Positions 2,330-58,098 of a stretch of 64,000 bases of DNA are shown in pieces (positions within the stretch are counted from its first letter, which is position 1; each line of letters starts with the position of its first letter). The DNA lies in assembly GCF_004010195.1 (NCBI RefSeq), contig NC_057751.1:9807457-9871456 (forward strand), read 5' to 3'. The translations under genes were made by a program, and so were the position numbers. The notes below the pieces were generated by a model. It saw only the letters and a program-made list of their open reading frames with translations, searched no databases and had not been told where the DNA came from. The DNA comes from Chiloscyllium plagiosum. Taxonomy: Eukaryota.

Positions 2330-3050
2330 GGTTGGGGAGTAATCTGAAGATTATTGTCTTTATGGGCATGCTTTTTAACTTCACCCCAAGCTGCTTATAC
2401 TCTTTCAGCAGAAGTTTCTTCCTACGTGTGTGGTTGGTATTATGTTCAACCACAACAATTGGATCCTTCTGTTCTCACTCTAAATTCTCAAGAGATGTAT
2501 TTAACACTGGCAACATACCCTACGGGACTTAAGCTTCATTCTGCCAAGAATGGTGTCACACCTTTCCCTGCACTCTCCTTTTCTATGACCATATTTCTCT
2601 GTAGTCCCTCAACTTGAATGGCCCTCTGTATCACAGTGGTGTGGTCACTTTGCTCATCTTTCCTCCAGTTCCCACTGTCTTCCACACAGGATGCAAGAAC
2701 CTCGCACCTATTAGACAAGTGCAAGGGCTGTGGCTTCTTCAGTGCAACTTTCCAGATTCCCATATCCCTTTCAATTGTAGTTAGACTCTCCTGTACTTGA
2801 CTATCGACAAAGTGGTAGAAAACGTAGGTTGGTTTTCTGGTTCCTGGAACACACATGGTTCATTGTGTCCAAAACTTGGGCTCCAGTTCATTGAGTTGAA
2901 GTTTCTCAAATGCAGGTGCTTACGACCAATGTGGTTGCCGTGGATCAGATTGCAGTTCAGCAGCTCCTACATGCTTCAGCTGCAGCACAGCACCTGCCCT
3001 TCCAGCTTTGTTGTATTTTCTCTGAGAGTGAGAGTTTCAAGATTTGAAAT
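2330..3050 (-). mobile_element. Degraded CR1 LINE ORF1 region
   Basis: QPLHLSNRCEVL and Cys-rich CCAAAEAC-type segments typical of CR1 ORF1. Confidence 0.5.
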
Positions 3051-4250
3051 ATTCCCCTAACAATTATTTTTAGCTTCATGAAATAATTTAAGTCATTAAG
3101 CCATAAATTTAATACAGTCCTCATGCAACCAACTTCCTGAGTTGAGAGAAACAAATGTCAAGCTCACCAAACTACTGACCAATCACCTACTGGCTTACCT
3201 ATTAATGCCTTGAGACATCAGCTCTCAGATCTTGCTGCCTCTCTTGTCTTGTACAAAATCAGAACAGAAATACCAAGTACTCTGTTGAAACTGTACTCTG
3301 TTGAGGAACTGCTATCTGTTTAATAGCTTTAACTTTACACTTTGCTCTTGGATCTTCAGGGAAAGATACACTAAAATGCCCAGATCTCTTTCCTTCACCT
3401 GTCTTTAATTCTGTTCCTCTGTGGTAATATACTCAGCATTTGATCTACCCAATGAGAAACACCGCATGTCCTGAAGTTAAACATCATTTGGTAAACACGA
3501 GCCCATTTATCCAACAAGATCTGCTTTCTGTGCTCAAGCTCCTCCATAGTTCCAACTCCCACATACATTTTGGGGTCATTCACAACTTGTGGTTTATTCT
3601 CCAAGATTATTGATAAACTTGGTAAACAGTAAAGTTAGTGAATGAGAAACAACATTGGCGAGCAGTCTTCAAGCAGATCCAAATCTATTGACTGCAATTT
3701 TCAGCCTACAGGTATTCAGCCAGGTCTCAATCTACTGGAGTGATTTGCCATTAATTGCACATGGTTCTGCCTGTCAATAAGCAATTTGAGAGGTTCTCCT
3801 AAAGTTGCTTTACATGAGGTAGCTGTTTCAAACATGTTCCTTCAGCTTTTGGTCACAATTCCTAATTTCTTTCTGAGCTCTGCACCCACTCTCCATGTTA
3901 ATTATATTTAAAATGTTGAATACCACATGTTATTATTGCCACACTTCCATTTATTGCCCAGATCGAACAATGGAGGGGTTTTCTGGATCATGTCGGAGGA
4001 CACTTGAGCAATATCTACCTTGGTGTGTGACTGAAGGCAGATCAGTAAGTTGGCAAACCTCCTTCCCTAACTAGAAAACCAGTTGGAATTTTACTGTAAT
4101 CACATTTTCATTTACAGATTTTGAATTTGAATAATACCATGGTATTTGAACTCTCTTTTCTGGATAATGAGACCTAGCCTCTGAAGTATCAGCAATGTAA
4201 CATAAACAATGCACTCCAGTCCCTTCATTTTATACAGCTTCACAGTTCTC

Positions 4251-5558
4251 TCCCCTTCCTGGACCATCTCAGACACCTCCCTCCCCTTCCTGGACCATCT
4301 CAGACACCTCCCTCCTCTTCATGGACCTCTCCATCACCATCTCCGGCAACCGACTAACTACAGACATCTACTACAAGCCCACTTACTCCCACAACTACCT
4401 AGACTACACCTCCTCCCACCCTTCCTCCTGTAAAAATCACATCCCTTATTCCCAATTCCTCCGCCTCCACCGCATCAGTTCCCAGGATGACCAGTTCCAC
4501 CTTAGAAAATCCCAGATGGCCTCTTTCTTCCAAGATCGCAATTCCTTTCCCATGTGGTTGACGATGCCCTTCAGTGCATCTCCTCCACTTCCTGCACCGC
4601 TGCCCTTGAACCCCACCCCTCCCAACACAACAAGGACAGAAACCCCTAGTCCTCACTTTCCATCCCACCAACCTCCGCATACATTGCGTCATCCTCTGCC
4701 ACTTCCGTCACCTCCAAACAGACCCCACTACCAGAGATATATTTTTCTCCCCACCCCTATCAGCATTCTGGAGAAACCATTCCCTCTGCGACTCCCTCAT
4801 CAGGTCCACGCGCCCCCGCCAGCCCACACCCCACTCCTGGAACCTCCCCTACTGCCACAGGAATTGAAAAACCTTCGCCCACACCAGTCCCCTCACCTCC
4901 ATCCAAGGCCCCAAAGGATCTTTCCACATTCGACAGAAATGTACCTGTACCTTTACCAATGTCATCTACTGTATCTGTTGCATCCGATGTGGTCTCCTCT
5001 ACATCGGTGGGACAGGACCCTTTCTTGCAGATTGTTTCAGAGAACATCTCTGGGACACCCGCACCACCAACCCCACCGCACCGTTGCTGAACACTTGAAC
5101 TCCCCCTCCCACTCCATCAAGGACATACAGGTCCTGGGCCTCCTCCACCCCCAAATCGTTACCATCTGTTGCCTGGAGGAAGATCGCCTCATATTCTGCC
5201 TTGGGACCCTGCAACCACATGGCATGATTGTGGATTTCAACAATTTCCTCATTTCCCCTCCCCCGACATTATCCCAGTCCCAAGCCTCCAACTCAGCACC
5301 ACCCTCCTGACCTGTCAATCACCTTTCCCATGTATCCGTTGCACCGCCCCGCCCGACCTACCACCTTCTCCTTCACCTTCATCCACCTATTGCTTTCTCA
5401 GCTACCTTCCCCCCAACCCCACCCCCTCCCATTTATCTCTCAGCCCCCCAGGCCCACAAGCCTCATGCCTGATGAAGGGCTTATGGCCGAAACATCGATT
5501 CTCCTGCTCCTCTGATGCTGCCTAGCCTGCCGTGCTTTTCCAGCACTACACTCTCGAC
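4251..5558 (+). mobile_element. Penelope-like retroelement, 5'-truncated (RT C-terminus, GIY-YIG region, terminal repeat with hammerhead motif)
   Basis: [44 protein letters not shown]; CTGATGA..GAAA at 5469-5492. Confidence 0.85.
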
Positions 5559-6454
5559 AGCTATAAGATCTGTCAGAAGGGGTTTCTTCAAATGAAATAA
5601 TGTGAGAGTTACAGTTGCTATACTAATTTGACCATTGCATTTATGTTGTGCATAGTTCACCATAAACTTATCAGAATTCCTCAGTGGCAAAACACACTCT
5701 GGGTGATGGAATGGAATCAAAGTGCAGATAACAGAACACTTGGACTAGTCAGGACGCTCTGATTTCTTTCAGATGCCAGATTTTTAATTGCACCATTGCT
5801 AGCAGTCTTCTGTTGTGCAGGATAAGAATTTCTGCTGAAGCAGTTAAATCTGTACCATTTGTACAGATACAGCAATGATTCATTGTGATTGATGAATAAC
5901 AATGCAGTAGGAGATCAAACTCACTCAAACCAGGTTAGTACCAACAGCTGACCCAATGTAAATTCACTTTTCTGTAAACAGTGTTGTAAACTGTAATTAG
6001 CAGGAACATGCAACAATATTTGAAGAAGCTCTGCACTCAAATTTCCAGCTCAGCATGTTTAACCAAAAAGGCTGCGAGGTTCATTCCCAGACTTTGCCGG
6101 ATGGCAGGAATGAGGGATTTGAGGATAGGTACAATGGAATTCTGAGCTCTGAGCAGGGGAAAGCAAATAAGCCTGGGTTCCTGTGTTGGCCTGCTGACCA
6201 GTGATTGCCTGTTGGGAAGTGCATCTGAGTCCAGGATGGAATTAGCTGTGATGCTACCACTCACTTTCAGACTATTTTGGTCAGCACTGGAGTGTGATTC
6301 AGCATGAGTCATCACCTTCAGAACAAAATATGTGGGGAGGGCTTAAGAGGAGAGCTTTTGATTTTGGAGCAAAGTCCAGGGGTACAGATCAGAATGAGAA
6401 GGAAAGAACTTGAATTTCTGCCCTGCATTTGCCCATCTCAGAATATCCCAAAGT

Positions 6455-6843
6455 CATAGAGATGGAGCTGTGCAGCACGGAAACAGACCCTTCAGTCCAA
6501 CCCATCCATGCCAACCAGATATCCCAACCTAATCTAGTCCCCCTTGCCAGCACCCGGCCCATTTCCCTCCAAACCCTTTATATTCATATACCCATCCAGA
6601 TGCCTCTTAAATGTTGCAATTGTACCAGCCTCCACCACTTCCTCTGGCAGCTCATTCCATACACTCACCACTTTCTGCGTGAAAAGGTTGCCCCTTAGGT
6701 GTCTTTTATATCTCTCCCCTCTCACCCTAAACCTATGCCCTCTAGTTCTGGACACCCCCACCCCAGGGAAAAGACTTTGCCTATTTATCCGATCCATGCC
6801 CCTCATGATTTTATAAACCTCTATGAGGTCACCCCTCAGCCTC
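6455..6843 (-). mobile_element. CR1/HER1-like LINE 3' end
   Basis: [41 protein letters not shown]. Confidence 0.85.
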
Positions 6844-6992
6844 TGATAACTAAATCAATCTTTCTGAAGTGTTCCTGCTAGAGATAGTCCACAGTATGAA
6901 AGTCATCTAAAAGGATGTTATTGTTTCTGAAATATCAGGATATGAAGAACATCTCTGGAGCACTTGATACATACATCCCAAATTGCTCCTAC

Positions 6993-7071
6993 CTGCCCAT
7001 TTTGTTAGCGAGAACACCAAAGAGATTTGTGCCCATCAAGTAGCTGATTGTGGATGGCAAGAAAGCCAAAC
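6993..7071 (-). CDS. SLC18A1: SLC18A1 coding exon 10 ([27 protein letters not shown])
   Basis: ggcag| ... AG|gtagga, 79 nt; preceded by a 110-bp intron; TM8. Confidence 0.93.
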
Positions 7072-10000
7072 CTGCCAGAAGAGAACATCCAGGTCAGGAA
7101 AAAGGCAAACAAGGTGACTCTGCCTCAGCCTTTCACATCCACACAGACAATGGTTTCAACTTGATATTTGTGGCAACATACCCAAGTGCAGTTTAGGAGA
7201 ACACATGGTCTTCATCATCCAGATTGGTAGCGCCTGGTCCAGCATTGCGATGGCCATATTTGAGAAGCACAGGCTTCCTTGAAATAAATAACAGGCCCAA
7301 CTTTCAATCAATACATGCATTTGCCCGAAGGAGTTATGAGCAGGAGAAGGCAATTTGGTCCTTGAGCCTGCTATACCAGTGAATAAGATATTGTTGTAAC
7401 CTCAGTTCCATACTCCCACCTACCTCTGACGACATTTCATTCTCTTGCTAACCAAAAGTTCATCTATGTCTGCTTTAAAAATATTCAAACAGTCTGCTTT
7501 TCCTGCCTTTTGGGGAAGAGAGTTCCGAAGATTCATAACCCTCTGTGAGAAGAAATATTTAAAATGTGCATTTGACAACTCAATGTTGGAAATCTGAGCA
7601 AATGAAAAATTCACCCTCACCCCTTCAGATGAGAAAGAAACCAAATAAGCTCCATTCGTTAAGATTTTTCTTTACCTGTGCACTTAAAGTTAAGTGCAAG
7701 TAATTAAATCCTTCTATATCTCACCACTGTGCTTGGATACACTTTATGTGCACACAATTAATAGCAGCTAAAGGAGAAATGAATTTCTAAGAAAAGGACT
7801 GTGTTTAGAACATTGGAGAAGGTTCAACAGTTGAACATTAAATGTATCAGGCGACCATTCTCTTGCTTCTGTTTTCGATGTTTCAAAGACATTTAACGTG
7901 TCAAGGGTTTGGAGACAGAGCAGTAGTATGGCATTGAGAGAGAAGGTCAGCCATGACCATACTGGACAGTGAAACAGGCTCCCTGGACCAAAGAGCCTCC
8001 TCGTACACCTTTTTGCTCTGTTTATCCCAGTATTCTAGTTTGGTGCCTCAGAACGACAAATTGCCAGCCACTCTTCAACCCAATCATTTGAAATCAAAAA
8101 TGATATTCCCTTGTAATGTGTTCCTCTAAAAAGTTATTCTCAGGAGTCACTGGCAAGGCCTGGAAAGGTGCCAGTGGACCTCCTTCTTCTTGAACCACTG
8201 TGAGCTGTTTGATAAGACCCAGTTGGGCCATTTAAGAGGGGAGTTTAAAATCAGTTGCGTTGGTGTGGGACCACAGTCATGTATGAAACCAGATTGGATA
8301 AGGATGGAAGATTTCCTTCCCTAATGGCTATCTGTGAACCAGAAGACCTTTTCCAACAATCTGACAGCTTTAGTTTAAAGGAGGCGCTGGTGTGTTGGTA
8401 ATATCCTTGGACTAGGAATGAAGAAACCCAGGCTAATATTCTGAGGTCTTGAATTCATGTACAGCAGTGGCAGTGATGAATTCAACAGAAATCGGTAATT
8501 TGAACAAAAAAAGCAAGGCGAGTGGCAATCATGTGACCACACTGATTTGTTGTAAAAAACATACTAGTTCATTATTGTCCTTCAGGGAAGGAAATGAGCC
8601 ATCCTGCCTCCCTCAGCTCACAAATTCACTCCAGATCCACACCAGTGTGGTTATCTGTTAAGGTGTTGTCTCCAATTTGGGATCAGCAGTAGATGCTGGC
8701 CTGACCAGCAATGTCCAAATCATGTGAGTAAAGAATAAAGTGAAAATGATGGCAATTTGGATGAGCACTTCCCTGAATTGTAAGGCTGTAGCTCTGGATT
8801 ACGAGTCCACTAGCATAACCATGACACAATCATAATTTTCACTTTGTGTATTCTAATTCTATCACTATCACTGAAACTTTCCGACAACAAATTTCTGGAG
8901 ACACATGCTTTGAGGCACACATATGTGAAAGAATTCTCTTCTTATCCATTTTCTAGATTAACATCTATAATTTATTCGCTCACGAAGAAATCTGCAGAGT
9001 GTCTCAGAAGCCAGGTTTTCTGAAAACCATCCTAAATCAAAAGTCACGCAAATATTTCTGAAAACTCAATCCTTCCTGGGATAATGTGTAAACAATGGAT
9101 CTGCTTACCGGCAGCAATCAGTATGTAGGGATCTCTCAACAATGTTAACAGAGACGATCCTTTCTGACTCTGTAATCAGAACAACAGAAATAGCAGTCGG
9201 TCAAGCTATCATCCCATCCAAAGCCAGCTTGAATTCTGACAGAGGAGACCAAATGCTACTGTTGTAAATAGTTCATATTGAAGTACAAATCCTCTTGTAA
9301 TATTCAGGGCTGAAATCAAGTTCTGAGAATGAACAGATGGATTGCTCGTTTAAATAATTATTATATATTTCAGATAAATTATAAATTCCTGATAGAATGC
9401 CAAAATAACATTCAATGACCTCCTCAATCATGTTTCAACTCTATTACTAGTTCTGTTCTGCAGCTCCAGATGGAAAGAGTGAGATCAGTCAGCCTTGTTA
9501 CAGATATTTAATGTTCATTTTCTGAATTGAAAGGTATGACATTTGAGATTGATATTGTCTCCCTGTCATTCTGTTGTTTTAGGGTGCTGGATGAATGCAG
9601 CTTATTGTTGTGAGGGATTCCATGGTATCAAAAGAGTGCTGAAGGAAGAAAGAAAAACTGGTCACTCACCTCTGCAATAGCTTTAGTGGGAGAAAGGATG
9701 AAGAGCTGGAGAGCTGGGTGAATAGAAAAAGGAATTCAGCATTCAATAATTTAAGCAAATTAGCAGTTATGAAAAACTAGCAGGAAAGAAAATTGTGAGT
9801 TAAATCTGGTTCATTCAGGGATTCAGGGACATCAATTGCCTTTCAAAGTAAAATCTCTTCATGTGCTGTTCTATTCTGTCTTTTTTCAAGCATGCAAATG
9901 TTTCGAGACAGAGGAGATTATACAAAGGAAGATCACTCGAGGTGGTGTTTTGAAAGCCCATTCAGTGTTGGAGAAGCAAAGAGTTAGATTCTGCAATTCC

Positions 10001-13000
10001 AATTTAAAACTGTTACCCCCTCCACAATTACCTAACAAAGGGGGCAGGGATGTGACCTGCACTCAAACCTGTCTTTCGCTGCCCATCTTGATCTTGGGCA
10101 AAAGACTGACTCTGCTCTGACGCCTTCTTAATTTCATGGCTGTAGTGGAGACTCACAATTACTGACCTCAGTGACAATCCACTCACCAATTGGTCAAGTT
10201 GTACACAAAGAAACTAATTTAAAAGGACTGCTTTGGAATAGCAGATTTGTTCTGTGCCAGTCAAATAGTAACTTTGCAGAATCCTTGCTGCCACAGGAGC
10301 AGCTTTAACTGAGGTTGGCAACATCCCACAGTTGAAGTATCAGCTGTTTCAGAAAACAAACTGGCTCTGACTAAGATCATCTCCTACTGTCTCCAGAAGG
10401 GTTGATGACACTACTGTGGGTAAAACACACCCCCAACAGTACCCTTCCACCGACACTCTCATTCGTTTGGCCAACTGGTCCTCGCCCTCAACAATTTCTC
10501 CTTTGAATCCTCCCACTTCCTCCAGACCAAAGGGGTAGCCATGGGCACANNNNNNNNNNNNNNNNNNNNNNNNNNNNNNNNNNNNNNNNNNNNNNNNNNN
10601 NNNNNNNNNNNNNNNNNNNNNNNNNNNNNNNNNNNNNNNNNNNTTCATCCCCTCCCCCACTCACCTATTGTACTCTGTGCTACTTTCTCCCCCCCACCAC
10701 CCTCCTCCATCTTATCTCTCCACCCTTCAGGTTCACTGCCTTTATTCCTGATGAAGGGCTTTTGCTCGAAACGTCAATTTTACTGCTCCTCGGATGCTGC
10801 CTGTGGTTCAGGCAGCACCACTAATCCAGACACTAATATGGGTGGCTACCAGGTTAGGCCAAATGTACCTTCTGCCTCATAATTTAACAAAACAAATAAT
10901 TCACATGAAATGTAGAACATTCTGTCTTTTTTCAGTAAATCAGCAGTGTTTCACAATTTAAAATTGTACCGACCTCCATCGATTAAAGCCAAGCCTGCCA
11001 AAATCAGAAAAGGAGATGACTTTCCCACATATTCATACATCACACTTCCGAAAGGTGCTCCAACTGCAAGCAATGAAAAATTGGAATGAATCCAAATGAA
11101 ACTTACCAAGAACCAGCTGCAAACACAAGTGAATGGGTGGCACGGTGGCATAGTGGTTAGCACTGCTGCCTTACAGTGCCACGGACCCAGGTTCAATTTC
11201 TGTCTGTGTGGAGTTTGCACATTCTCCCCGTGTCTGCGTGAGTTTCCTCCGGGTGCTCTGGTTTCCTCCCACAGTCCAGAGATGTGCTGGTCAAGTGAAT
11301 TGGCTATACTAAATTGTCCATAGTGTTAAGTGCATTACTCAAGGGAATGGGTCAAGGTGGGTTACTGTTCGGAGGGTCGGTGTGGACTTGTTGGGCCGAA
11401 GGGTCTGTTTCCATACTGCAAAGAATCTAATCAATGGCCAAAAGGTTGTTAATTTTATTCCATTCAGTCCTGTGTATTGCCCTGTCCCTGCTGCTGATAA
11501 TTAAAGCTCCAGAGATGAATGAGAACATTTCAAGATTCTGACCTCTTGGCTTGTCTTCCCAGGTTCTGGTCTGCACTTCCTTGAACAAACTTGCTGAGGT
11601 CAAGATTTAAACAAAGGGACCGAAGGTATGGCTTTTGACTGAGCACCCTTCTTTGGGAACGAGACAGTATGGGAGTAGATCTGAGAATGTTTGTTGCTCT
11701 TTTTGATTTGATTTGATTTGATTTATTATTGTCATGTGTAATGAGGTAAAGTGAAAAGAGTTGTCTTACATGCCTGACAGTACAAATGTAACAGTACATA
11801 GTTTCATCTACGTGCAATGTACACATTACTTACCAAGCACCCCCACAGCTATGCCTCCCAGTGCTATGCCCATGGTTTTGCCTCTTTCATTGTCATCTGT
11901 ATAATAACTGGCTAACATTGCCAAACCTACAGAGAAAGAAACCATTAGTCCAACAATCACTAAGTCATAAAGAAAAAACTCAAGCAACATCCATTACTTC
12001 TCACAAAACTGGAACTCATCCTTAGTCTGTCAGCCCATTTTATTGTTATGGTGTGGAGGTGCCAGTGTTGGACTGGGGTGGACAACGTCAGAAATCACCC
12101 AACACCAGGTTATAGTCCAACAGGTTTATTTGAAATCACAAGCTTTCAGAGCGCTGCTTCTTCATCAGTTGGAGTCCAGTTGACGAAGGAGCAGCTCTCC
12201 AAAAGCTTGTGATTTTAAATAAACCTGTTGAATTATAACCTGGTGTCATGTGACTTCTGACTTTATTGTTGTGTAGAATTTCAGTGAACTTGTCACCATT
12301 GCACTGTCATTTTTGAAAGCTTCTGAATATTCAGAACTGAATATTCAGAATATTCTGAACCAGAAGACCAATATTTTAATGCTGAATGGTCCGATCTATT
12401 TGGCTTCTCTTCATTATTTCACCCAGGTTATTATTAGCTTCTGAAATCTCATACAGTTAATTGTTGCTGAAGCAGGCAGATGGAAAAGATATGTTCAGGA
12501 AATAAATCCTACCCTCCTCCATTTGATTAGATTAGATTAGATTCCCTACAGTACGGAAACAGGCCCTTCGGCCCAACAAGTCCACACCAACCCTCCAAAG
12601 AGTAACCCACCCAGATCCATTCCCCTATCCTACATTTACGCCTGACTAATGCGCCTGACATTATGGGCAATTTAGCATGGCTAATTCATCCGACATGCAC
12701 ATCTTTGGATTGTGAGAGGAAATCAAAGCACCCAGAGGAAACCCACACAGACCACAGGGAGAATGTGCAAACTCCACACAAGACAGTTGCCTGACGCGGG
12801 AATCAAACCTGTGTCCCTGGTGCTGCGAAGCAGTAGTGCTAAACACTGAGTCAATGTGCCACCATATTCTGGGCCCCAGTCCTGTTGATTCCCTCCCATC
12901 ATCTTAACAATGCATTTATCCAGATTCCCCTAAAATAGTGGTTTCATTCTTCTTATTCAACTTTCTTTTTAAAACTTTGCTCATTCAGCGTTTCCTAAAG

Positions 13001-16000
13001 AATGATGATTCTCTCAGAATCAACGTTGCACCATTGCACTCACAGTCGTGATTTTTAACAAGTAAGTACTGTCAAATCTGAAATAATCCAGAAATCTGAA
13101 AGTTTGGCCAAATCCATGATTGTCAGATTGCTCCAGTCTTGGGTTGTTTCACTGGTGCTCATGTTGTGTTGGTTTCTCACATAAAGAATTCTGCTCTTGA
13201 AAACTTGGATGAATGGAATGGCATAATGTTCTGATATTGGAAGGAGGCAAGGTTTTAATTTTGTCTTTTTCATTTTCTCTGTGTGTGATTTGCTTAATGC
13301 CGTGTCCTCTAACTTGTTTTCAACTCTGCCTTTCCTGTGATTTACAATGACTCTGCTCTCAACCATGGTAGACAATTTCAGAGATTCTGGATCAGTGGTG
13401 CTGGAAGAGCACAGCAATTCAGGCAGCATCCGAGGACAGGCAAAATCGACGTTTCGGGCAAAAGCCCTTCATCAGGAATAAAGGCAGAGAGCCTGAAGCG
13501 TGGAGAGATAAGCTAGAGGAGGGGGGGGGTGGGGAGAGAGTNNNNNNNNNNNNNNNNNNNNNNNNNNNNNNNNNNNNNNNNNNNNNNNNNNNNNNNNNNN
13601 NNNNNNNNNNNNNNNNNNNNNNNNNNNNNNNNNNNNNNNNNNNNNNNNNNNNNNNNNNNNNNNNNNNNNNNNNNNNNNNNNNNNNNNNNNNNNNNNNNNN
13701 NNNNNNNNNNNNNNNNNNNNNNNNNNNNNNNNNNNNNNNNNNNNNNNNNNNNNNNNNNNNNNNNNNNNNNNNNNNNNNNNNNNNNNNNNNNNNNNNNNNN
13801 NNNNNNNNNNNNNNNNNNNNNNNNNNNNNNNNNNNNNNNNNNNNNNNNNNNNNNNNNNNNNNNNNNNNNNNNNNNNNNNNNNNNNNNNNNNNNNNNNNNN
13901 NNNNNNNNNNNNNNNNNNNNNNNNNNNNNNNNNNNNNNNNNNNNNNNNNNNNNNNNNNNNNNNNNNNNNNNNNNNNNNNNNNNNNNNNNNNNNNNNNNNN
14001 NNNNNNNNNNNNNNNNNNNNNNNNNNNNNNNNNNNNNNNNNNNNNNNNNNNNNNNNNNNNNNNNNNNNNNNNNNNNNNNNNNNNNNNNNNNNNNNNNNNN
14101 NNNNNNNNNNNNNNNNNNNNNNNNNNNNNNNNNNNNNNNNNNNNNNNNNNNNNNNNNNNNNNNNNNNNNNNNNNNNNNNNNNNNNNNNNNNNNNNNNNNN
14201 NNNNNNNNNNNNNNNNNNNNNNNNNNNNNNNNNNNNNNNNNNNNNNNNNNNNNNNNNNNNNNNNNNNNNNNNNNNNNNNNNNNNNNNNNNNNNNNNNNNN
14301 NNNNNNNNNNNNNNNNNNGAGGTAGGGTGGGACGAGGTGTAATCCAGGTAGCTGTGGGTCGGTGGGTTTGTAGAAAATGTCAGTGTCAAGTCGTTCGTCA
14401 CTAATGGAGATGGAGAGGTCCAGGATGGGGAGGGAGGTGTCAGAGATGGTCCAGGTAAATTTAAGGTCAGGGTGGAATGTGTTGGTGAAGTTGATGAATT
14501 GCTCAACCTCCTCGCGGGAGCACGAGGTGGCGCCAATGCAGTCATCAATGTAGTGGAGGAAGAGGTGGGGAGTGGTGCCGGTGTAATTACGGAAGATCAA
14601 CTGCTCTACGTAGCCAACCAAGAGACAGGCATAGCTGGGGCCCATATGTGTGCCCATGGCTACCCCTTTGGTCTGGAGGAAGTGGGAGGATTCAAAGGAG
14701 AAATTGTTAAGGGTGAGGACCAGTTCGGCCAAACGAATTAGAGTGTCGGTGGAAGGGTGCTGTTGGGGACTTCTGGAGAGGAAAAAACGGAGGGCTTGGG
14801 GGCCCTGGTCATGGCGGATGGAGGTGTAGAGGGATTGGATATCCATGGTGAAGATGAGGCGTTGGGGGCCGGGGAAACGGAAGTCTTGGTGGAGGTGGAG
14901 GGCGTGGGTGGTGTCTCGAACGTATGTGGGGAGTTCCTGGACTAGGGGGGATAGGACAGTGTCGAGGTAGGTAGAGATGAGTTCAGTGGGACAGGAGCAT
15001 GCTGAGACAATGGGTCGGCCAGGGTGGTCAGGCTTGTGGATCTTGGGAATTGTTCAGTGATCAACCATTTCCTTTCTTTGACTGATGATCTCGTTCTGCT
15101 TTCATCAATTTCTTACACTACATGCTTATAATCTATGGTCATCTGAGAATGCAGCGGTGTTTGCTCATAAAAGAATTGTTTGAAACTTGAAGGACATCGA
15201 AAACCCAATTGTTTCAAACACAGAAAATGCTGGAGAAACTCAGCAGGATCGGCAACATTTGTGAGTCCAATGTAACTCTTCTTCAGCACAGAATCAGAGA
15301 ACAGATCTGGAAGGAGGCCATTTGGTCCTGTGGACCTACAGCAGCCCTCTGAGTGACCAATTCATTAAGGACCATTCTCCCCATCCTTCCCCTGCAGCCT
15401 TGCATATTTATCCTTCACAGATAACAGTTTCATTGTCTTTTGATGCCTCCATCATACCTTCAAGCATTCCAGGTCTAACTACTAAAAGCCAAGTCCTGTG
15501 AATGCTGGAAATCTGAAATACAAGCAGAAAATGCTGGAGACATTGAGCAGGTTTGGCAGCACCTGTGGAGGAAGAAGCAGTTCATGTTCGAGTCCCACAC
15601 GACTCTTCATCAGAACTCAGTTCAGATCCAAACCTGCTGAGTTTCTCCTGCATTTTCTGTTTTTATCCAGATCAAGTTACTTGCAGTGTGACAATGTTTT
15701 TCCCCATGTCGTTTTCCCTATTCTTTAATCAATAACTTCAAATATTTTCCCTTCCTTTGATTCTTTCATGAGTAAGAACAGTTTGTCCCCATTACTCTGT
15801 TCAGATGCTCATGATTTGAATGTCTTAATTAAAAGTCTTCTCAGCTTCTTTTCACCTTAATCCAACTCACATTCTTGGAAATGTAGAAACACATTTGTTA
15901 TCTGCTGGCAATCTTTCAGTCACTTCTTTCTCAATTTTTCTTTCACTTATAACTTTATTTCTATGACTATGCCTTTAGATTTCCCCCTTGTGTTTTTTTC

Positions 16001-19000: not shown

Positions 19001-22000
19001 GGTGGTTGGGTCTAGCTGGAGTTGGTGGACGTGTTTAAGGATGATGTGTTGGATGCCGAGACTGGTAGGATGGTAGGTGAGGACAAAGGGGATTTTGTAT
19101 TTATTGGGTTTGGAGGGGGGAGGGGTTTAGAGCATTGGCGTGGGGAAAGAGGTGGTGTGGTGGATGTCAAAGATGGACAAAGAAGTCTCCTGCTTATTAT
19201 CTCATATTGTGAATTCTCCCCCACCCACCTATGATTATTGGAGGTAAGTCTTCTCAGTTCCAGGACATCTATGCAGGAATTCCTCAGCAGAGTGTCCTCA
19301 GCTCAACCATCTTCAGCTGCTTTATCAATGAACATCTCACCTTCATAAGGTCAGAAGTGGGGATGTTTGCTGAGGACTGTACAATGTTCAGCACTGTCTG
19401 TGTCTCCTCAGATACTGAAGCACTCCATGTCCAAATGCAGCAAAATTGCTCAATATCCATGTTTGAGTTGTTAAATAACTTTGGATGCGAGCATAAGAGA
19501 TACAGTTAGTAAGTTTGCAGATGACACCAAAATTGGAGGTGTAGTGGACAGCGAAGAGGGTTACCTCAGATTACAACAGGATCTGGACCAGATGGGCCAA
19601 TGGGCTGAGAAGTGGCAGATGGAGTTTAATTCAGACATTGGTTAGGCCACTGTTGGAATATTGTGGGCAATTCTGGTCTCCTTCCTATCGGAAACTTGAA
19701 AGGGTTCAGAAAAGATTTGCAAGGATGTTGCCAGGGTTGGAGGATCTGAGCTGCAGGGAGAGGCTGAACAGGCTGGGTCTGTTTTCCCTGGAGCGTCAGA
19801 GGCTGAGGGGTGACCTTATAGAGGTTTACAAAATTATGAGGGGCATGGATAGGATAAATAGGCAAAGTCTTTTCCCTGGGGTCGGGGAGGGCATAGGTTT
19901 AGGGTGAGAGGGGAAAGATATAAAAGAGACCCGAGGGGCAACTTTTTCACGCAGAGGGTGGTACGTATATGGAATGAGCTGCCAGAGGATGTGGTTGAGG
20001 CTGGTACAATTGCAACATTTAAGAGGCATTTGGATGGGTATATGAATAGGAAAGGTTTGGAGGGATATGGGCAGGTGGGACTAGATTGGGTTGGGATATC
20101 TGGTCGGAATGGACGGGTTGGACCAAAGGGTCTGTTTCCGTGCTGTACATCTCTATGACTCTGTGACTCTAAGAGAGATTCTAACCTTTGCTCCATGTCA
20201 TTCAATAGCAAAACCAATGCTGAATTCCCTACTATCAACATGCTGAGGCTATGATTCGCCAAAAACAGTACTGGGCTAACTGTATACATACAATGGTTAT
20301 AAGAGCAGATCAGAGGCTGGCAATCCTGCGGCAAATAACTCACCACCAAATTCCCCAATATCTTTCTACAGTCCTCAAGGCACCAGTCAGGACTGTGATG
20401 GAATACTTCCACTTGACTAAGTGAGTGGAGCTTTGATAACACTAAAACTTCAACACCATCAGGACCAAGCAGTCCACTTGATTGGCACCATATTCACAAA
20501 CATTCACACACTGATGCACAGTGGCAGCATTCTGTACCATTGACAAGATACACAGCATAAATTCGCCTAGGCTGTTTAGACGTGAGACAATAAGACATAG
20601 GAGCAGAAATTAGGCCATTCAGCCCATCGAGTTAGGTCTGCCATTCAATCATAGCTGATAATTTTCTCAACCCCATTCTACCACTTTCTCCTGTAACCCT
20701 TGATTCCCTTGATACTCAAGAACCTATCGATCTCAGCACTGTCCAAACCCATGACCACTGCCCGTTAGCAGGAGATACAGGAACACTACCACCTGTAAGT
20801 TCCTGTTCAAGCCATTCACCATCCAAACCTCAAAATATAGGTGTTCCTTCAGTGTCACAAGGCCGTAATCCTGGAATTCCCTCCCTCACAACATTTTGTG
20901 TCCAGCTCCAAAAAAATAGACTGCAAGTAGTGCAAGAAGTGCACTGCACCTTCTCAAGGGTACTTAGGGATGGGCAATAAATGCTAGCCCAGCCAACAAT
21001 GTCCACATCCCACAAACAAATTTAATAAATACTTTGTTACAAGCCTCTGACAACATTCCTTTTCAACAATGAGTTCTGAAACATGCCCCACTATTGGCTT
21101 GCAGTGTCCCCGGCATAACTTCCAGAGTAATTCAATCTGTACTCACTTATTGTTGACATAAACAATATCACAAAACCAGTGAACATAGGAAGGTGATATC
21201 CAATCCTGAAAAAAAGAAAATAAAATTGATGCAGAGAATGAAAAAAGATATATTACCCAGGAGCTACTTTAACTGAAAATTCCCATGCTCCTTGCAGGGA
21301 AATGATCTCAATGTATTAAGTTGTATTCTTTGTATTTGGGCAAAGTTCAATGTCATGTGTTAAAAGTAGAGTTTTCAGAGTTTTGACTGGACAAACTGAT
21401 CAGCTTGTTTAGGAATGGAAGCCTTTTAATTTCAGATTCAAATCCTGAAGATGAACTTGTTTGACTGTTGTCACTTGGAAAGGAGAATAAAATGATTTCA
21501 CTTCCAGATTTATGCTGTTGAGCTCACCTATTCCTCAGCTTGCAGCAGAATTAAGATGTTATGCTGTTTATTTCAGTTTGAGAGAAGTTTTAAGTACAGG
21601 TAGACAACCCTTTATCCAAACTCCCGAAATCCGAAAAGCTCCAAAATCCAAAGGTTTTTTTGTGAAGTTTTATCTCATTAACAAGGTTGTTGGCGTGCAA
21701 ACAGTTAACCCAATTCCACACCCACTCAATGCGTGTCACTTAGATGCGACATGGGTGGGCATGGCCCAGCACTGGCAGGCCTCAATTCTGTCGCAGGGTC
21801 TGTTACTCACAGTGAGTCTGCTATCGGTAAGACTGTTTTCAAAATTTCACCATTGAAGTATCACTTATTCTGAAATTCAAAACATTCCGAATTCCGCAAA
21901 CCAGCTGGCCCCAAGTGTTTTGGATAAAGGATTGTGTACCTGTACTACGAACCTTGTTTCTCTTTTACTCGAGAATTGCAGGTCAAGTGTCTCCATACCT

Positions 22001-25000
22001 GCAACCTAAGGAGTGAGGCTATGCCTGATTTCAGATACTGCTGGTTTTGGGCTTGGGCGGTTCGAGAAATGGGCAATTCAGGTCAAGCTTGGTTGGGTGG
22101 GGTCAAAGGTTATACAGGACAGATCAGCACACGAAACCAATAATTCATCTGGGAGCCATACCGAGTTGAATTGCTCAACGTAGTTTTTTGTTCAAAAGTT
22201 ACGCAATTAAGTTTGATTCATGGAGCATAAAAGCAGGATATGATTTTTGGAAAACTCTGTTTTCGGACAGCCAGATTTAAGGTGCAACCTGCAGTCAAGA
22301 GAAATGGGGAATACAAAGTGCAGTCTTACACAAATAGCTCAGAACTCCCCGGTTGAAAGCTGTATTCAGTAGATCAGACAGCATAGGTACAACAACTCCA
22401 CTGTAAATTCTCAGTTGTAACAATGGCAGGAAATGTGAAAAGGAAATAGTTAAATTCCTGCCAGGTCTCACGACTGTGGGCACCATGGCCTCAGTTGAAA
22501 GGCAAACACGATGCTCCCCCAACCTTCTGCACTGTTTGTCTTATCTTGGTTGGCAAGAGAGAAGGTTCAGCCACAGATTCTTTTTCACTTTAGATCAATG
22601 GTCTGCTGTGTGGATAAATGAGAGCTGAAGACCAAGCTGGAAGGTTCATGGTCTTGCACATTAAGGCACCTTGCACAGCATGGTATACTCTTGGTCCATG
22701 CAGTGAGGTGCCAAGTACATATGAATTAACCCAGATTCAATTGCCTCCTGAAGGCTTCCTCACTCACCTGTTGGTCAGCGGGCCAATTAATGGATTCACG
22801 ATGAGCTGCACAATCGCTTTTGAAGCTAATAACAAGCCAACACGAACGTTTTCCTCTGCTAAGAATGATTTGTTCCGACTGCAGTGGGCTCTTCCAGTTC
22901 CTGGCCTCAGGCTTGGGATGGCAGCTTCAGTCATGTTTGTCCATTTAAATCCTTGAGTCTGACTGTCAGCTGCTGCAGTATTCTCAATTGTAAACTGGCC
23001 ACCACTGGAATCTGAGAGGCCAGGGGAGAGTGTGGAGGACAGAGCTGGTGGCTGCTCTGATGATGCTGACCTATTCATTTCTGAGTTCTGTTTTTCATAC
23101 AAGAAATTAGGGATGATGGGTACTGAAACAGAAAGAACATTCAATCCATACTGAGTGAAGATTATAATTCCCTCAGTTGAAATGTGGTGCACTTTAATCT
23201 CCTGCTTTGTAGCCATCAAAAAGTTAAACAACTGCTTCTGTGACAATGGTTCAGCTCTCTGAAGCCTCCCAGTACAAAGGGCAATGGCTCTTTCTGACAA
23301 CATAGAGATGATGTTTGCAGATACTATGAAAGAAATCAAAGTGCATATTTTTACATATTCAGGATTACAATTTGGGAATTGCCCAAAAACATAAAATGCT
23401 GTTCTGATTACAGTCAGAGACTGTGGGTTGCAAAGTTAATTTCCCACATTGTTTCTTCTGGAAGTTGGTCAAACAGATACCGAGACAAAGCAAAGGAATA
23501 TTGTTTGAGAAAAAACTGGCAAGTAACTCAACCTGGACCTTCCCTTAGTGGCTCAGAACAGATACTGTGTAAGGCTTGAGATCATATTGCCCAGCTGGTC
23601 TCTTGGCTGGGAGTGTGGAGGGAGTGGCAAATACAAATAGATGAGGAGGAAGGGGAACAGTTTACCATTCACTGCTGTTATGAGTGGATAAAGCTTGTGA
23701 AAATCTCAGCACATAACACCATTAGATACAAGCAGAATTTGACCATTCAGACCATCGAATCATGTCTGCTATTTGATCATGGCTGATATGTTTTTCAATC
23801 CTATTCTCATGGCTTCTCCCCCTAACCCTTGATCCCTTCAGAGATTCATCAAGAATCTATCTATTTCTGCCTTATGGAAGCCATGACTTGGCCTCCACAG
23901 TCTTTTGCAGTAATAAGTTCCACAGATTCACTATCTTCTTGCTGAAGAAATTCCACCTCATCTCAGTTTTAAAGGGTTGTCCCTTTGACTGAGGCTACGC
24001 CCTAGGGTCCTACTCTTTCGTATGAGTGAAAACATCTTCTCCATGTTCACTCTTCCAGGCTTCTGTAAATTTCAATCAGATCCTCTCTCATCATTCTACA
24101 CAGACCTAGCATCATTAATCACTCCTCATATGACAAACCTTTATTCCCTGGGATCATTTCTGTAAACTTCCTCTGAATACCCTCCAATGCCAACATATCC
24201 TTCCTCAGATAAGGGCCCAAAGCTATTCTCAGTGTTCCAAACACTGTCTAACCCGAGCCTAATACAGCCTCAGCAGGATTTCCCTGTTTATGTATCTTAA
24301 TCCTCTTAAAATTAATGCTAATATTGCATTTGCCTTCCTGACTGACAACTGAACCTTAATGTTCAGAGAATCCTGAACTCGGAATCCCAAGTCACTTTGC
24401 ACTTCAGATTTGCAAAGCCTTTCCCTGTTTAGAAAACAGTTCATGCCTCTATTCTTCTGACCAAAGTGCATAACCTAACACTTCTCCACATTATATTCCA
24501 TCTGCCACTTCTTTCCCTATGCTCCGAGCCTGTCCAAGTCCTTCTGCAGTCCTTGTGTGTCCTCAACTCTTCTTGTCCCTCCACTCATTTGCAAATTAAT
24601 CAACGATGCTCTCAGTTCCTTCATCTATATTGTGAATGTGTAACGTAAATAGTTCAACAGTGTGTGGGAAATAGTATCAATCAATGAGTGAGAAATCTGA
24701 CCCTTCATCATGTGAGAAATATGATCCCTCAGTAAATAAGAGGCATGGTCCTTCAGTGCATGAGAAATTCAACCCTCTGATTCTCTTGCAACCTCTGCAC
24801 TTCAATATTGTTATCTTCTACTGATGACCAGAATTATATTTTTTAATCAATTGTCCACAAATAATATTAGACCTGAACTTACCAATAACAGTTAGTAGGG
24901 TATAGTCCAGAAAAAGTGCAATATAAACAATAACAAGCACCATTGTTCTGGACTGCCTTTCCTTTTTCAGCCATTGCCATCCTCTGCATTCCTTTCCCCA

Positions 25001-25009
25001 TGGCACCAT
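6993..25009 (-). CDS. SLC18A1: Vesicular monoamine transporter 1, spliced; 10 coding exons in window (1088 nt, about 362 aa, N-terminus to TM8); 3' exons lie left of the window
   Basis: All exons have GT-AG borders and consistent phases (127,355,59,84,93,90,44,61,96,79 nt). Translation matches VMAT motifs ([68 protein letters not shown]). VMAT1-type segments ([23 protein letters not shown]) and head-to-head position with ATP6V1B2 as at human 8p21.3 support SLC18A1 rather than SLC18A2. Confidence 0.9.
7182..7277 (-). CDS. SLC18A1: SLC18A1 coding exon 9 ([32 protein letters not shown])
   Basis: ttcaag| ... G|gtatgt, 96 nt; TM7. Confidence 0.92.
9109..9169 (-). CDS. SLC18A1: SLC18A1 coding exon 8 ([20 protein letters not shown])
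   Basis: ttacag| ... G|gtaagc, 61 nt. Confidence 0.93.
9670..9713 (-). CDS. SLC18A1: SLC18A1 coding exon 7 ([15 protein letters not shown])
   Basis: cccag| ... GAG|gtgagt, 44 nt. Confidence 0.9.
10427..10830 (+). mobile_element. Penelope-like element fragment spanning an assembly gap
   Basis: RT segment near-identical to 14620-14770 (reverse complement); terminal hammerhead motif 10744-10779. Confidence 0.8.
10550..10643. other. Assembly gap (N run)
   Basis: Ns. Confidence 1.
10974..11063 (-). CDS. SLC18A1: SLC18A1 coding exon 6 ([30 protein letters not shown])
   Basis: ttgcag| ... G|gtcggt (weak donor), 90 nt. Confidence 0.9.
11135..11432 (+). mobile_element. HE1-like tRNA-derived V-SINE
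   Basis: A box (tggcatagtggttagc), B box (ggttcaattt), V-domain core, LINE-derived tail ending aatctaatc. Confidence 0.85.
11834..11926 (-). CDS. SLC18A1: SLC18A1 coding exon 5 ([31 protein letters not shown])
   Basis: ctgtag| ... G|gtaagt, 93 nt. Confidence 0.93.
12048..12261. mobile_element. Palindromic PLE-terminus-derived insertion with 9-bp TSD
   Basis: Arms about 12087-12168 and 12180-12261; TSD tttattgtt at 12039-12047 and 12262-12270. Confidence 0.75.
12525..12863 (-). mobile_element. HE1-like V-SINE
   Basis: Reverse-complement SINE with (gatta)n tail. Confidence 0.85.
13381..15048 (-). mobile_element. Penelope-like element (RT) spanning an assembly gap
   Basis: [32 protein letters not shown] motifs; hammerhead motif 13444-13479. 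Confidence 0.9.
13542..14318. other. Assembly gap (N run)
   Basis: Ns. Confidence 1.
15500..15670. mobile_element. Degraded palindromic PLE-terminus remnant (similar pieces at about 15215-15290, 33940-34060, 60760-60890)
   Basis: cagaaaatgctggaga..agcaggtttgg / ccaaacctgct..tctcctgcattttctg arms; CTGATGA-AGAGTC..GACTC-GAA on the minus strand. Confidence 0.6.
17036..17119 (-). CDS. SLC18A1: SLC18A1 coding exon 4 ([29 protein letters not shown])
   Basis: gacag| ... G|gtattt, 84 nt. Confidence 0.93.
17530..17874 (+). mobile_element. HE1-like V-SINE
   Basis: tRNA-like head, V core, LINE tail. Confidence 0.85.
18165..19165 (-). mobile_element. Penelope-like element with GIY-YIG endonuclease, 8-bp TSD gtcaaaga
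   Basis: [23 protein letters not shown]; TSD at 18157-18164 and 19166-19173; hammerhead motif 18261-18293. Confidence 0.85.
19462..20170 (+). mobile_element. CR1/HER1-like LINE 3' fragment
   Basis: [24 protein letters not shown]; ctatgactct tail. Confidence 0.85.
21147..21205 (-). CDS. SLC18A1: SLC18A1 coding exon 3 ([19 protein letters not shown])
   Basis: tttcag| ... A|gtgagt, 59 nt. Confidence 0.93.
21597..21942. mobile_element. Tc1/mariner (Tigger/pogo-like) MITE
   Basis: 24-bp TIRs caggtagacaaccctttatccaaa / caggtacacaatcctttatccaaa (22/24 identical), TA on both flanks. Confidence 0.85.
22768..23122 (-). CDS. SLC18A1: SLC18A1 coding exon 2 (lumenal loop + TM2)
   Basis: ttcag|TACCC...AACAG|gtgagt; VPIIPNFLY...[10 protein letters not shown]; sequons NRS, NMT, NKS and a loop Cys. 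Confidence 0.93.
23725..24650 (-). mobile_element. CR1-like LINE 3' fragment
   Basis: [27 protein letters not shown]. Confidence 0.8.
24883..25009 (-). CDS. SLC18A1: SLC18A1 coding exon 1 ([10 protein letters not shown]...LDYTLLTVI)
   Basis: aagATGG start; acceptor tttcag with exon start at 25036; donor G|gtaagt at 24882. Confidence 0.88.
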
Positions 25010-28000
25010 CTTGATCCCAGGTGAGTTGTTGTCAACCTGAAACAACACAGCACATTGATCATCAGGTGCATGTTACCCCAACCATAGTGCCGAGCTCACA
25101 GAATGAATTGCCACAAGATAACTATGTGTATTGAGACAAATCTAAACAGAACTATTCATTCCAAGCTGAGGTTGTCACATCCCCACACTTGACAGAAACC
25201 TGTGTACAGAGTTAAGTTTTGGCTGGGATTCAGGTAGGCATTCCATCAATAATTCTTGAAATGTTTTGTTTTGATCTGCATCAGCATGGTCAGAGTCAGT
25301 CTCTTCTTGTTGTGTAATTTTCATGGTGCTATTTTCCATAAACAATCGATACTGATAGGAGCATCATAGTGGTGAGAAGAACCTGGAGTTAATGCATTAT
25401 GACTCAGGCAAGAGCAGAAACAATTGAGCCAGGCAAACACTGCGATGTTACAGAAATAATTTGGGGCTGAATGTTCTGCTTAGCCCCGGCTTGCTGCATG
25501 CGAAGACAAGTGATTCACGACCTGAGTGAGCCGTGAGCTCGGAGAATCTGGCTGAATTGACTCTTAGTGGCCAACTCTCGGAGCTCTTCAAATTGGCTTT
25601 CATCACTCTTTCAGACAGTGCATTCCACATTATATCAAACTATCAATAGTTTCTCCATTTTTCCCATCATTATTTTGACAATTATATTAAATCCATCTGA
25701 TATGTTCCTGGTGATGATAACTATTTTTATCTATCAAATCTCATTTGTCATTTTTAACACCTCTGTTAACTGTCCCTCTATACGTCCTCATCATGAGTAG
25801 GCTAAATCTAAAACTGACCTTACAATCATCACCATCTCTAAATTTTATCAGACACTTGTATTTTATTTCAGAATTTGCATCATTTAGCAATGTTCCACTT
25901 ACCTTCTCCACAATGTCCTGTGACCCTTGAATTCGCAGACTGCTGTCGTTCTCGTTTGGTCTGCACAGTTTCAGTTCAGACTAATATAAAGAAATGATTT
26001 TATGAGGAGAACATAATAAAGGATCCCAAACAAAATGTAGCCTACAAAACTGTGGTCCCCTGCGTCATGTAGGAGGAAATGAATCAAATATTTTCATTTG
26101 ATTTGCAAAGAACAAGGAGAGTTTAACATTACTGTGATTTGTTTGCTCAAGATAATCGCTGTTCAAACCAATGCAGTTTGTTTTCCTGTATTTGGTTCAT
26201 TAAGGGATGCAGCATCTGGAAGAGGCAATTGTTGAAAACTTCAAATTTATCGTGACAAGTTTATGTTTTGCAGAAGATAACCATTGAAGAAGACAGAGCA
26301 AGGAAAAGCTGCATGTCACATGACAAGGCTACTGAGAATGTTATAATTTTGGTTCATAATAAGAATTCAAACAGAGTCTGTCAAGGTGCAGACAAAGTGT
26401 TCCACGTCACATTTAAAATCAAGCAAAGGTCTGTTCTGGGAAAGCTGACAAAAGACTGGAGACCATAATCGCCTTGCCCTTGGTTATTGCTGGGGATCAT
26501 CTGTTAGTTATTAACTGTGGGGTTGCCCAGTGTCCGATAATCATTATCTTGGCTATCTTTAAAAGCACCATCAACCCCATGTTCTGTTAGATAACTTAAT
26601 GTCACTAAATATTCCCAGTGCAGAGAATTCAAGTTGAAGCGTCTGACGTAATGGCTGCTTCCACCATTTGCTGATTCCACTGTACTGTTTATCTCATTAT
26701 CCAGTCATCTTGATCTTTTTCCAAATTTTTTCAGTCTGTTTTCCACTGAGGCTGAGTTTCCTATAACTTTGGGGCTGCTGTTATCTCTGACCTCCCTCTT
26801 CTCCCTTCCTTTTGCCTTTGATTGACTGCAGCAACATTTTGATGAGGAAAAGCAAAACAAAACTCCAGCATACGTCAGGTAATCCAGCAAGGATAAAGGA
26901 GAAAAGTTGGCAATAAGATGAAAGAGATAGGCTGCCATCTTAAGCCCAAGATCTCACTTTCTCCCGTAAACTCCTGAAGATTTTTACATTTGTAATTCCA
27001 TGGTTCCAGCTTTGGCCTTTTATTCTGATCTTTCTAAAATCTGGTACTCATCCTTCATTTTATGCTGCCAATCTTTAACATACCAAAGAGAGACCTTGCA
27101 AATTGCAGCCTTCATATCATAATATACGAGAACGCAGTACATGTATCACAGCACAATTCCTTTCTTGGCACAAAAAACCCTCCTGTTTGTCAGTTGATAA
27201 TTATCATCCAGTAGGGTTGGGCTGCACATCTGCTGAAGATTCATGCTGGTCCTGGGCTGATGGATGCATGTGTTTTTCAACTGTTTGTGCAGCAATTCTT
27301 AGTGCAGTGGCATCAGGGATCACTTTGGTGGCTGGATCCACTGGGGACTATGTGGACAACATCGGGAACTGCGGATCTCCTCAGCTGAATGATCATTTAG
27401 CATTCAGCTGCACACATGAATCACATTCAAAATGTCTCCTCAAAATATTGGGATATGGTGACTCCCTGTCAAGTAGGCCCTTGAGATTCCTCTCCATGGA
27501 TGTTGCAGATCATTGCTCTGAACCAAATGTCTGTTGTTCAACTCTGTTGGCACACATGCAGAATCTGACTGTGCATGTAGCAGCAATGATGAAGAAAGAC
27601 AACAACATATGGAGGATAATGGTGTGGACGTTTGAAGGCCCAAGGTGCGCAGTGAGCCAGTCCTACAATTTGCGCAGACAATATGACCTTGGAAAGTGAT
27701 TGCTAGTTTGGCAATGAGGGTGAATCTTTCAGGCCACAAGACATTTCTTGTGCCTCATTACCATTAGTAGGATAGATTCATTATGTTCAGTGATGTGGTC
27801 AAAAGTGCTTCGGTCAGGACTTTTCGTTGATATCATCAGTCAATGTTCAGCATTTGTGATAATGGATGTCATTCACGCAGACTGTGCAGGTGAATGTTTA
27901 ATGCTATTGTTCTTTGAAGGGCCATACATTGCACAAAAATGGATTCCCCTTCCTTAGCGAATGAAACACTTACTGCTGTCACTTGGTTTGTGGTGGCACT

Positions 28001-34336: not shown

Positions 34337-58098
<23,762 letters not shown>

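Follow-up and report, generated by a model that had tools for sequence, protein, structure and literature searches.

Does a shark vesicular monoamine transporter lack the glutamate-proline pair that its relatives carry in the substrate pocket, and what would such a change mean for the way the protein handles amines? The question was raised by a 64,000-nucleotide stretch of Chiloscyllium plagiosum DNA (RefSeq assembly GCF_004010195.1, contig NC_057751.1, positions 9,807,457 to 9,871,456; hereafter the window). In a sequence-only reading, its gene for vesicular monoamine transporter 1 (VMAT1, SLC18A1) appeared to encode Asp-Gln (D-Q) in place of Glu-Pro (E-P) in transmembrane helix 7 (TM7). We observed that the substitution is real. 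Comparison of aligned proteins shows that the change is wider than one exon: it is a clade-wide pocket change in elasmobranch VMAT1, and in all 22 sharks and rays several residues are altered that are nearly fixed in other vertebrates. These data suggest that the cargo is likely gripped differently while the proton drive is likely retained. All residue numbers are those of human VMAT2, taken from alignment to 8ucj_A.

The D-Q exon and the gene that carries it

The D-Q pair lies in a 96 bp exon on the minus strand (7277-7182) with AG/GT ends and phase 1/1, which reads ...ATG CTG GAC CAG GCG CTA CCA ATC TGG... (GAC 7239-7237, CAG 7236-7234). Exon residues 1-29 aligned without gaps to residues 300-328 of 8ucj_A, and in the alignment to solved VMAT2 and VMAT1 chains the D and Q fall on E312 and P313. 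Downstream in the same exon, KWQLG has become KLHLG (L328 H329; CTG 7191-7189, CAC 7188-7186), as had been read from the DNA. A Logan contig from run X2 covers 7083-7472 with 0 letters different from the window; the reads thus do not show GAG CCG, the outcome that would have pointed to an assembly error. All 31 sampled words were present in runs X2-X5, which are four samples from a single study and may include the source of the assembly. LDQ also occurs in the RefSeq proteins of C. plagiosum, C. punctatum and Hemiscyllium ocellatum. The codons, the structure alignment, the X2 contig and the three hemiscylliid proteins together confirm D-Q and leave no assembly error. A contig from another organism (run X1; spliced, its RNA origin being the tool's guess, depth ~3) has GAG at position 312. 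It skips a 110-base intron at its GT-AG ends and continues into apparent next-exon sequence.

We found ten SLC18A1 coding exons on the minus strand, from 25009 to 6993, every one with AG/GT ends. The exons and the codons of interest are listed here; counts refer to the alignment of 22 elasmobranch VMAT1s and 187 other VMATs described in the next section.

24883..25009, minus strand: exon 1 of the 523-residue model (TM1); D33 kept, N34 changed to Tyr (24904-24902), M35 changed to Thr
22768..23122, minus strand: exon 2, lumenal loop and TM2; F135 changed to Leu (22829-22827); K138, Q142 and N146 kept
21147..21205, minus strand: exon 3, placed by joining to XP_043537281.1
17036..17119, minus strand: exon 4 (TM4); R189, Q192, S196 and S197 kept
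11834..11926, minus strand: exon 5; D214, R217 and V232 kept, L228 changed to Ile
10974..11063, minus strand: exon 6, placed by joining to XP_043537281.1
9670..9713, minus strand: exon 7, placed by joining to XP_043537281.1
9109..9169, minus strand: exon 8, placed by joining to XP_043537281.1
7182..7277, minus strand: exon 9 (TM7 and loop 7-8), residues 305-336 of the RefSeq protein (P0009); its downstream joint is spliced in the other-organism contig
7258..7260, minus strand: AAT, N305, a kept amine-site residue (translation and alignment)
7237..7239, minus strand: GAC, Asp at 312; Glu in 187/187 other VMATs and in 18/22 elasmobranch VMAT1s; X2 agrees, the X1 organism has GAG
7234..7236, minus strand: CAG, Gln at 313; 22/22 elasmobranch VMAT1s; Pro in 183 and Ala in 4 of the 187 others
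7186..7191, minus strand: CTG CAC, L328 H329; W-Q in other VMATs; Leu in 22/22 and His in 16/22 elasmobranchs
6993..7071, minus strand: exon 10 (TM8), the last SLC18A1 exon within the window; F334 and Y341 kept, S338 changed to Thr (ACA 7051-7049)

The joined exons matched residues 1-362 of the RefSeq protein XP_043537281.1 (P0009; C. plagiosum, 523 residues) with 0 differences. Over the same 362 residues there are 4 differences in C. punctatum, 14 in Hemiscyllium and 40 in Stegostoma. Two runs of N (10550-10643 and 13542-14318) are both intronic, and residues 1-362 are complete without a missing exon. No exons for TM9-12 were found in window positions 1-6990; they most likely lie past the window edge, and statements on N388, D399, Y422, D426 and F429 of C. 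plagiosum rest on the RefSeq model. The earlier claim of an intact frame and intact splice sites is borne out across all ten exons. Its proviso that downstream exons might be disrupted is answered within the window by an open exon 10, and for TM9-12 by the 523-residue model, in which D399 and D426 are present.

We consider an assembly error or a pseudogene very improbable. What favors a pseudogene is that the TM9-12 exons lie outside the window, so that their state rests on a gene model; two single-cell RNA runs, sampled at ~2% and ~6%, gave no exon reads, which is too thin to count as a test, and no RNA run was listed as containing the sampled words. Both explanations are largely refuted by the letter-identical independent contig, by an LDQ common to three hemiscylliid species, and by ten open GT-AG exons without a difference from a full-length protein that has D399 and D426.

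We assessed the identity of the protein with a tree of 59 proteins (IQ-TREE, quick search, SH-aLRT support, no bootstrap). The elasmobranch VMAT1s group in a single clade (SH-aLRT 100) whose sister is bony-vertebrate VMAT1 (97), apart from VMAT2. An AlphaFold model of the C. plagiosum protein, built on 125 sequences, showed twelve long helices (pLDDT 86), consistent with a 12-helix MFS fold, and its best PDB matches were human VMAT1 and VMAT2 (Foldseek; 8tgh_A, TM-score 0.97 over target). TM7 is one helix through 313 in this model; there was no control, and nothing is inferred from it. The protein is the shark SLC18A1 (VMAT1) orthologue. The first identification of the gene thus stands, on the tree, the fold matches and the identity to the RefSeq protein over 362 residues. 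Exons of a V-ATPase subunit B gene lie head to head with SLC18A1; human SLC18A1 also adjoins such a gene.

Three other assignments were rejected. VPAT (SLC18B1) matched at E 2.8e-10 versus 1e-194 for VMAT1; D33, D399 and D426, present in the shark protein, are missing from it. VAChT (SLC18A3) has the same fold but matched at E ~1e-89 versus 1e-194, has ~34% identity and lies outside the VMAT clade. A misassigned VMAT2 is contradicted by the separate clade in the tree, and a separate VMAT2 with canonical LEP is present in C. plagiosum (P0218, P0220) and C. punctatum (P0213). VMAT2 (SLC18A2) shares the fold and the proton network, and is the source of most of the mutagenesis drawn on below. The shark's own VMAT2 differs in keeping LEP and the canonical pocket and in evolving ~5x more slowly.

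Human VMAT1 (PDB 8TGG-8TGN) is the closest solved comparison, with a sister-clade position, the same fold and 71% identity in the transmembrane core. It shares the equivalents of D33, K138, Q142, R189, N305, Y341, D399 and D426, and Phe at 433. The shark protein differs in D-Q versus E-P at 312-313, Y-T versus N-M at 34-35 and Val versus Leu at 232, and further in L135, I228, L-H at 328-329, S-T at 337-338, G388, F422 and L429.

Distribution of the pocket changes among vertebrates

We performed an alignment of 209 of 220 proteins, comprising 22 elasmobranch VMAT1s, a single one per species, and 187 other vertebrate VMATs (118 VMAT1-like, 69 VMAT2-like); 11 redundant elasmobranch isoforms were dropped. 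The 187 are the best 120 of 1309 and the best 120 of 1941 matches plus cluster members, a bird-rich set that includes isoforms. Q313 was present in 22/22 elasmobranch VMAT1s and 0/187 others (P 183, A 4). D312 was present in 4/22 (C. plagiosum, C. punctatum, H. ocellatum and Scyliorhinus torazame) and 0/187 others, and a carboxylate, Glu or Asp, occupies 312 in 22/22. Because the other vertebrate VMATs have Glu at 312 in 187/187 and Pro at 313 in 183/187, D-Q exceeds chance expectation. The conservation of E-P stated at the outset holds in full for E312 among these 187; at P313 four lizard VMAT1s have Ala. These four squamate proteins (P0169, P0179, P0187, P0188) represent a second, separate loss of the helix breaker.

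The Asp at 312 arose twice by parsimony, because Stegostoma and Rhincodon, beside the hemiscylliids, have Glu, and S. canicula, sister to S. torazame, also has Glu. The S. torazame Asp312 appears in one GenBank and two RefSeq records, on contigs of very different size. A change private to one species was rejected for Q313 and KLHLG, both of which are elasmobranch-wide. The D-Q pair, first read as a divergence of this transporter, is thus real but not confined to one spot: all 22 elasmobranch VMAT1s share Q313 and L328, and only D312 belongs to the bamboo-shark level, with S. torazame separately.

The orthologue alignment called for at the outset also revealed changes outside the D-Q exon. N34 is lost in 22/22 elasmobranch VMAT1s (Y 18, F 2, H 1, R 1), as are M35, A337 and N388 (G 18; others S, M or F). 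S338 is lost in 21/22 (T or A) and Y422 in 20/22, all 20 with F422. W328 has become Leu in 22/22 and F429 has become Leu in 22/22. Derived residues fixed in 22/22 include Q313, L328, L429 and five further columns. The changes in the D-Q exon therefore understated the extent of the divergence, missing larger changes of the same age at 34, 388, 338, 429 (F429L) and 422 (Y422F).

The proton network (D33, K138, Q142, R189, Q192, D426) and the amine site (N305, Y341, D399) are invariant in 22/22, as are N146, S196, S197, R217, Y418, W318, F334, D214, R357 and D411. Among gate residues, R217, Y418, W318 and F334 are invariant, with L135 in 9/22, F422 in 20/22 and L429 in 22/22. The prolines P42, P45 and P316 are kept in 22/22. 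Three hallmarks of the canonical VMAT sequence are absent: Glu312, which is Asp in the window protein; the TM7 PxxP helix breaker (P313, P316), which is broken by Q313; and N34/S338/N388, the hydroxyl-reading and E312-partner residues, lost in 22, 21 and 22 of 22. We therefore do not class the protein as a functionally canonical VMAT1, although in outline it most likely operates as one.

We also assessed 149 distant SLC18 representatives, 142 of which gave letters at 312-313 by pairwise alignment. E-P was present in 95 and Asp312 in 4; neither E-Q nor D-Q occurred among those 142. In many distant SLC18 proteins the residue that follows D33 is Tyr, Cys or Phe and the one that follows E312 is Ala, Ser or Thr, and like pocket changes recur there.

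Further variation was observed within elasmobranchs. L135 occurs in 9/22 VMAT1s, including all four with Asp312 (P0009, P0002, P0010, P0196) and five with Glu312; S. canicula has F135 with E312. L135 may be permissive rather than tied to D312, a weak indication from two origins. In the Mobula devil rays (P0014, P0003) position 34 is Arg or His, and in P0014 a conserved TM5 glycine has become Glu. Gln or Met occupies 311, beside E312, in several batoids (P0004, P0006, P0013 and P0018, noted with Mobula).

No holocephalan VMAT1 was present among the best 120 of 1309 and the best 120 of 1941 matches, where a Callorhinchus VMAT2 is listed. The holocephalan gene may have been lost, may exist only in fragments or may rank beneath the matches listed. 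Because none was listed, the only date for the changes is before sharks and rays diverged.

Pocket function, rates of change and competing explanations

Published work assigns roles to the altered residues. In VMAT2, a D33-centered network, an E312-N388 pair and an N305-Y341-D399 group have been described (PMC10959523). In lumen-facing states the amine of dopamine or serotonin sits on D399/N305/Y341, and the ring hydroxyls contact E312, S338, N34 and Y433; E312 takes the amine of histamine, and of serotonin in one cytosol-facing structure (PMC11405867, PMC11695631, PMC12721464, PMC10770148). The sequence-only reading had E312 bind the substrate amine, which agrees with the histamine and cytosol-facing serotonin structures but not with the lumen-facing ones. 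Amphetamine, which has no hydroxyl on its ring, engages D399/N305 but not E312 or TM1 (PMC12721464). N34 mutants lose tetrabenazine binding, with transport ranging from normal (Gln) to nil (Thr), and F429A halves transport (PMC10959523). Km and Vmax are both higher in rat P314G/L, mutants isolated in a screen for reduced tetrabenazine sensitivity (review PMC5940252), and with P314A uptake of FFN206 persists (PMC9684503). The primary mutagenesis (Gros and Schuldiner 2010; Ugolev 2013; Yaffe 2013) is cited here through review PMC5940252. The rat mutants P314G/L/A and E313D and human E312D change the same two positions as the shark protein; they differ in being single laboratory changes in a mammalian background. 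Neither Gln at 313 nor its combination with changes at N34, N388 and F429 was among the mutants in the parts of the published accounts examined.

Our account of the protein starts from firm ground: orthology, an intact frame over 362 residues, the residue changes and their timing, together with a 12-helix fold as modeled. The motor and the amine anchor are invariant and N34, S338 and N388 are lost, and so the hydroxyl-reading residues were rebuilt while the motor was kept. We give about even chances to the reading that follows from the alignment: the protein would be a proton-driven amine antiporter whose hydroxyl-reading residues were replaced in the shark-ray ancestor, with binding predicted to be weaker, less selective and less dependent on hydroxyls, and D312 would have been tolerated later through this rebuilding. 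The earlier description of a functional but divergent transporter is supported as divergent and, by the invariance of the proton network and amine site, as probably functional.

The proposed cycle would run as follows. Lumenal protons on D33, the K138/Q142/R189/D426 network and a carboxylate at 312, all of which are kept, would turn the carrier toward the cytosol. The ammonium group of the cargo would then dock on D399/N305/Y341. The upper polar site for the 5-hydroxyl and catechol hydroxyls (N34, E312, S338), with its partner N388, would be altered by Tyr34, Thr338 and Gly388. From the published geometry, we would guess that Leu429 may leave room for Tyr34 and that the amide of Gln313 may take over the role of N388. 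By analogy with rat P314G/L, loss of the P313 helix breaker is predicted to raise Km and Vmax, and its loss together with that of N34 to abolish tetrabenazine binding. Turnover is possibly faster, with little tetrabenazine sensitivity. Once N388, N34 and the proline kink were gone, position 312 would likely need only a protonatable carboxylate, and this would account for Asp having been fixed on two occasions. The account is favored by the natural Asp (D255) at the equivalent place in the working antiporter VPAT, and by one study in which E312D was "more tolerated" (PMC12721464). The canonical VMAT2 of the same species likely performs high-affinity loading, and this would loosen the constraint on VMAT1.

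Several results weigh against this account. E312D eliminated the activity of rat VMAT2 (review PMC5940252) and that in human proteoliposomes (PMC11405867), and sharply cut FFN246 uptake (PMC10770148), whereas it was "more tolerated" in radiolabel uptake (PMC12721464). N34A abolished serotonin uptake in one study and reduced it to under half in another (PMC12721464, PMC10959523). We estimated rates over 383 transmembrane-core columns, with the crown compared in the same 14 elasmobranch species. The VMAT1 stem measured 0.193 substitutions per site versus 0.040 on the matching VMAT2 branches, and the crown 1.325 versus 0.272. Stem and crown ratios are equal, at ~fivefold each, which fits a lasting relaxation and not one burst followed by tight constraint. 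An adaptive burst of that kind is thus unsupported. Of the 241 core sites that are conserved across 163 proteins of bony vertebrates, 21 are replaced and 45 vary in elasmobranch VMAT1, compared to 2 replaced and 7 varying in elasmobranch VMAT2. Replacements among eleven substrate contacts named in papers were weakly enriched, at 2/7 scoreable (one-sided p 0.11) or 3/10 (p 0.049) depending on threshold, and the enrichment was strong only with 313, 388 and 429 added post hoc. Position 34 also varies within elasmobranchs.

The same measurements bear on relaxed constraint, which the sequence-only reading had named as an alternative and which the ~fivefold rate on stem and crown upholds as a live one. 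Here a partly redundant paralogue would carry its usual monoamine cargo with poorer function, and a mildly harmful D312 would have drifted to fixation twice under cover of VMAT2. We hold this possible but less than evenly probable. Mean core identity in the 14 elasmobranch species was 80.7% for VMAT1 versus 95.0% for VMAT2, while the two differ little in bony vertebrates (86.2% versus 90.0%; ten proteins each, species partly matched). The canonical LEP VMAT2 of C. plagiosum and C. punctatum, damage from E312D in three of four studies, and the weak enrichment at named contacts point the same way. Against it, a full-length gene persists in every one of the 22 species seen, nineteen residues of the catalytic, gate and salt-bridge sets do not vary, the derived Q313, L328 and L429 are shared by all of these sharks and rays, and 312 is only Glu or Asp. 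Relaxation and re-tuning are compatible and not exclusive.

A different explanation is a change of cargo, in which the pocket was re-tuned to suit an amine that lacks hydroxyls on its ring (a trace amine such as phenylethylamine or tryptamine, histamine, or a polyamine-type compound) in place of serotonin and catecholamines. We regard this as unlikely. An intact amine site beside the loss of N34/S338/N388 would suit such a cargo, as would the contacts of amphetamine. In VPAT, a working H+ antiporter, the residue at the E312-equivalent place is naturally Asp (D255), which is used for polyamines, histamine and serotonin (PMC12049414, PMC13490608). Three mutations make rat VMAT2 transport drugs and stop its transport of neurotransmitters (review). 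The variation at 34, 338 and 388 among elasmobranchs is unlike a tight fit to one new ligand, however, and the shark protein keeps D33, D399 and D426, which are absent from the distantly similar VPAT. In a bolder form, VMAT1 was re-purposed in sharks and rays for this amine class, with Q313, G388, Y34 and L429 as natural suppressors letting Asp replace Glu312; we regard this, too, as unlikely. If true, a re-purposed VMAT1 would imply that elasmobranchs secrete or store a cargo not yet described.

Neighboring features and meaning for monoamine transport

We observed further features around SLC18A1 in the window.

25900..25959 (approximate ends), minus strand: possible upstream exon, which lengthens the N-terminus in the gene models of two relatives
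37687..58020 (approximate span of exons seen), plus strand: V-ATPase subunit B gene, head to head with SLC18A1

In human, the gene next to SLC18A1 is ATP6V1B2. Between the SLC18A1 and V-ATPase subunit B exons lies a CpG-rich stretch (34001-34500; GC 0.60, CpG observed/expected 0.85), which may be the promoter or first exon of the neighbor. Broken open reading frames at 241-618, 4201-5307, 6537-6854, 13422-15053 and 54583-55338 resemble, and are presumably, remnants of reverse-transcriptase retroelements.

RefSeq lists the elasmobranch VMAT1 proteins with routine names. Among the literature matches listed, in a search that covered few subscription journals, none dealt with the sequence or function of VMAT1 in sharks or rays or with this divergence. 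E312 has been described as conserved throughout higher organisms, with not even Asp accepted in its place (PMC5940252). Structural papers disagree on whether E312 binds amine, ring hydroxyl or proton, and VMAT coupling models have been called "at odds" (PMC12049414). Sharks and rays provide a natural series on the role of E312, from E-P (human) through E-Q (most sharks and rays) to D-Q (two origins), over an unchanged proton network. Residue swaps between these backgrounds would part substrate reading by E312 from proton coupling, and would show whether N388, N34 and P313 set the requirement for Glu312. The pocket divergence would surprise transporter specialists and is directly testable, with relaxed selection as a strong rival explanation. 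Our data predict that drug tools and assumptions derived from mammalian VMAT1 may not be transferable to shark chromaffin and gut endocrine cells.

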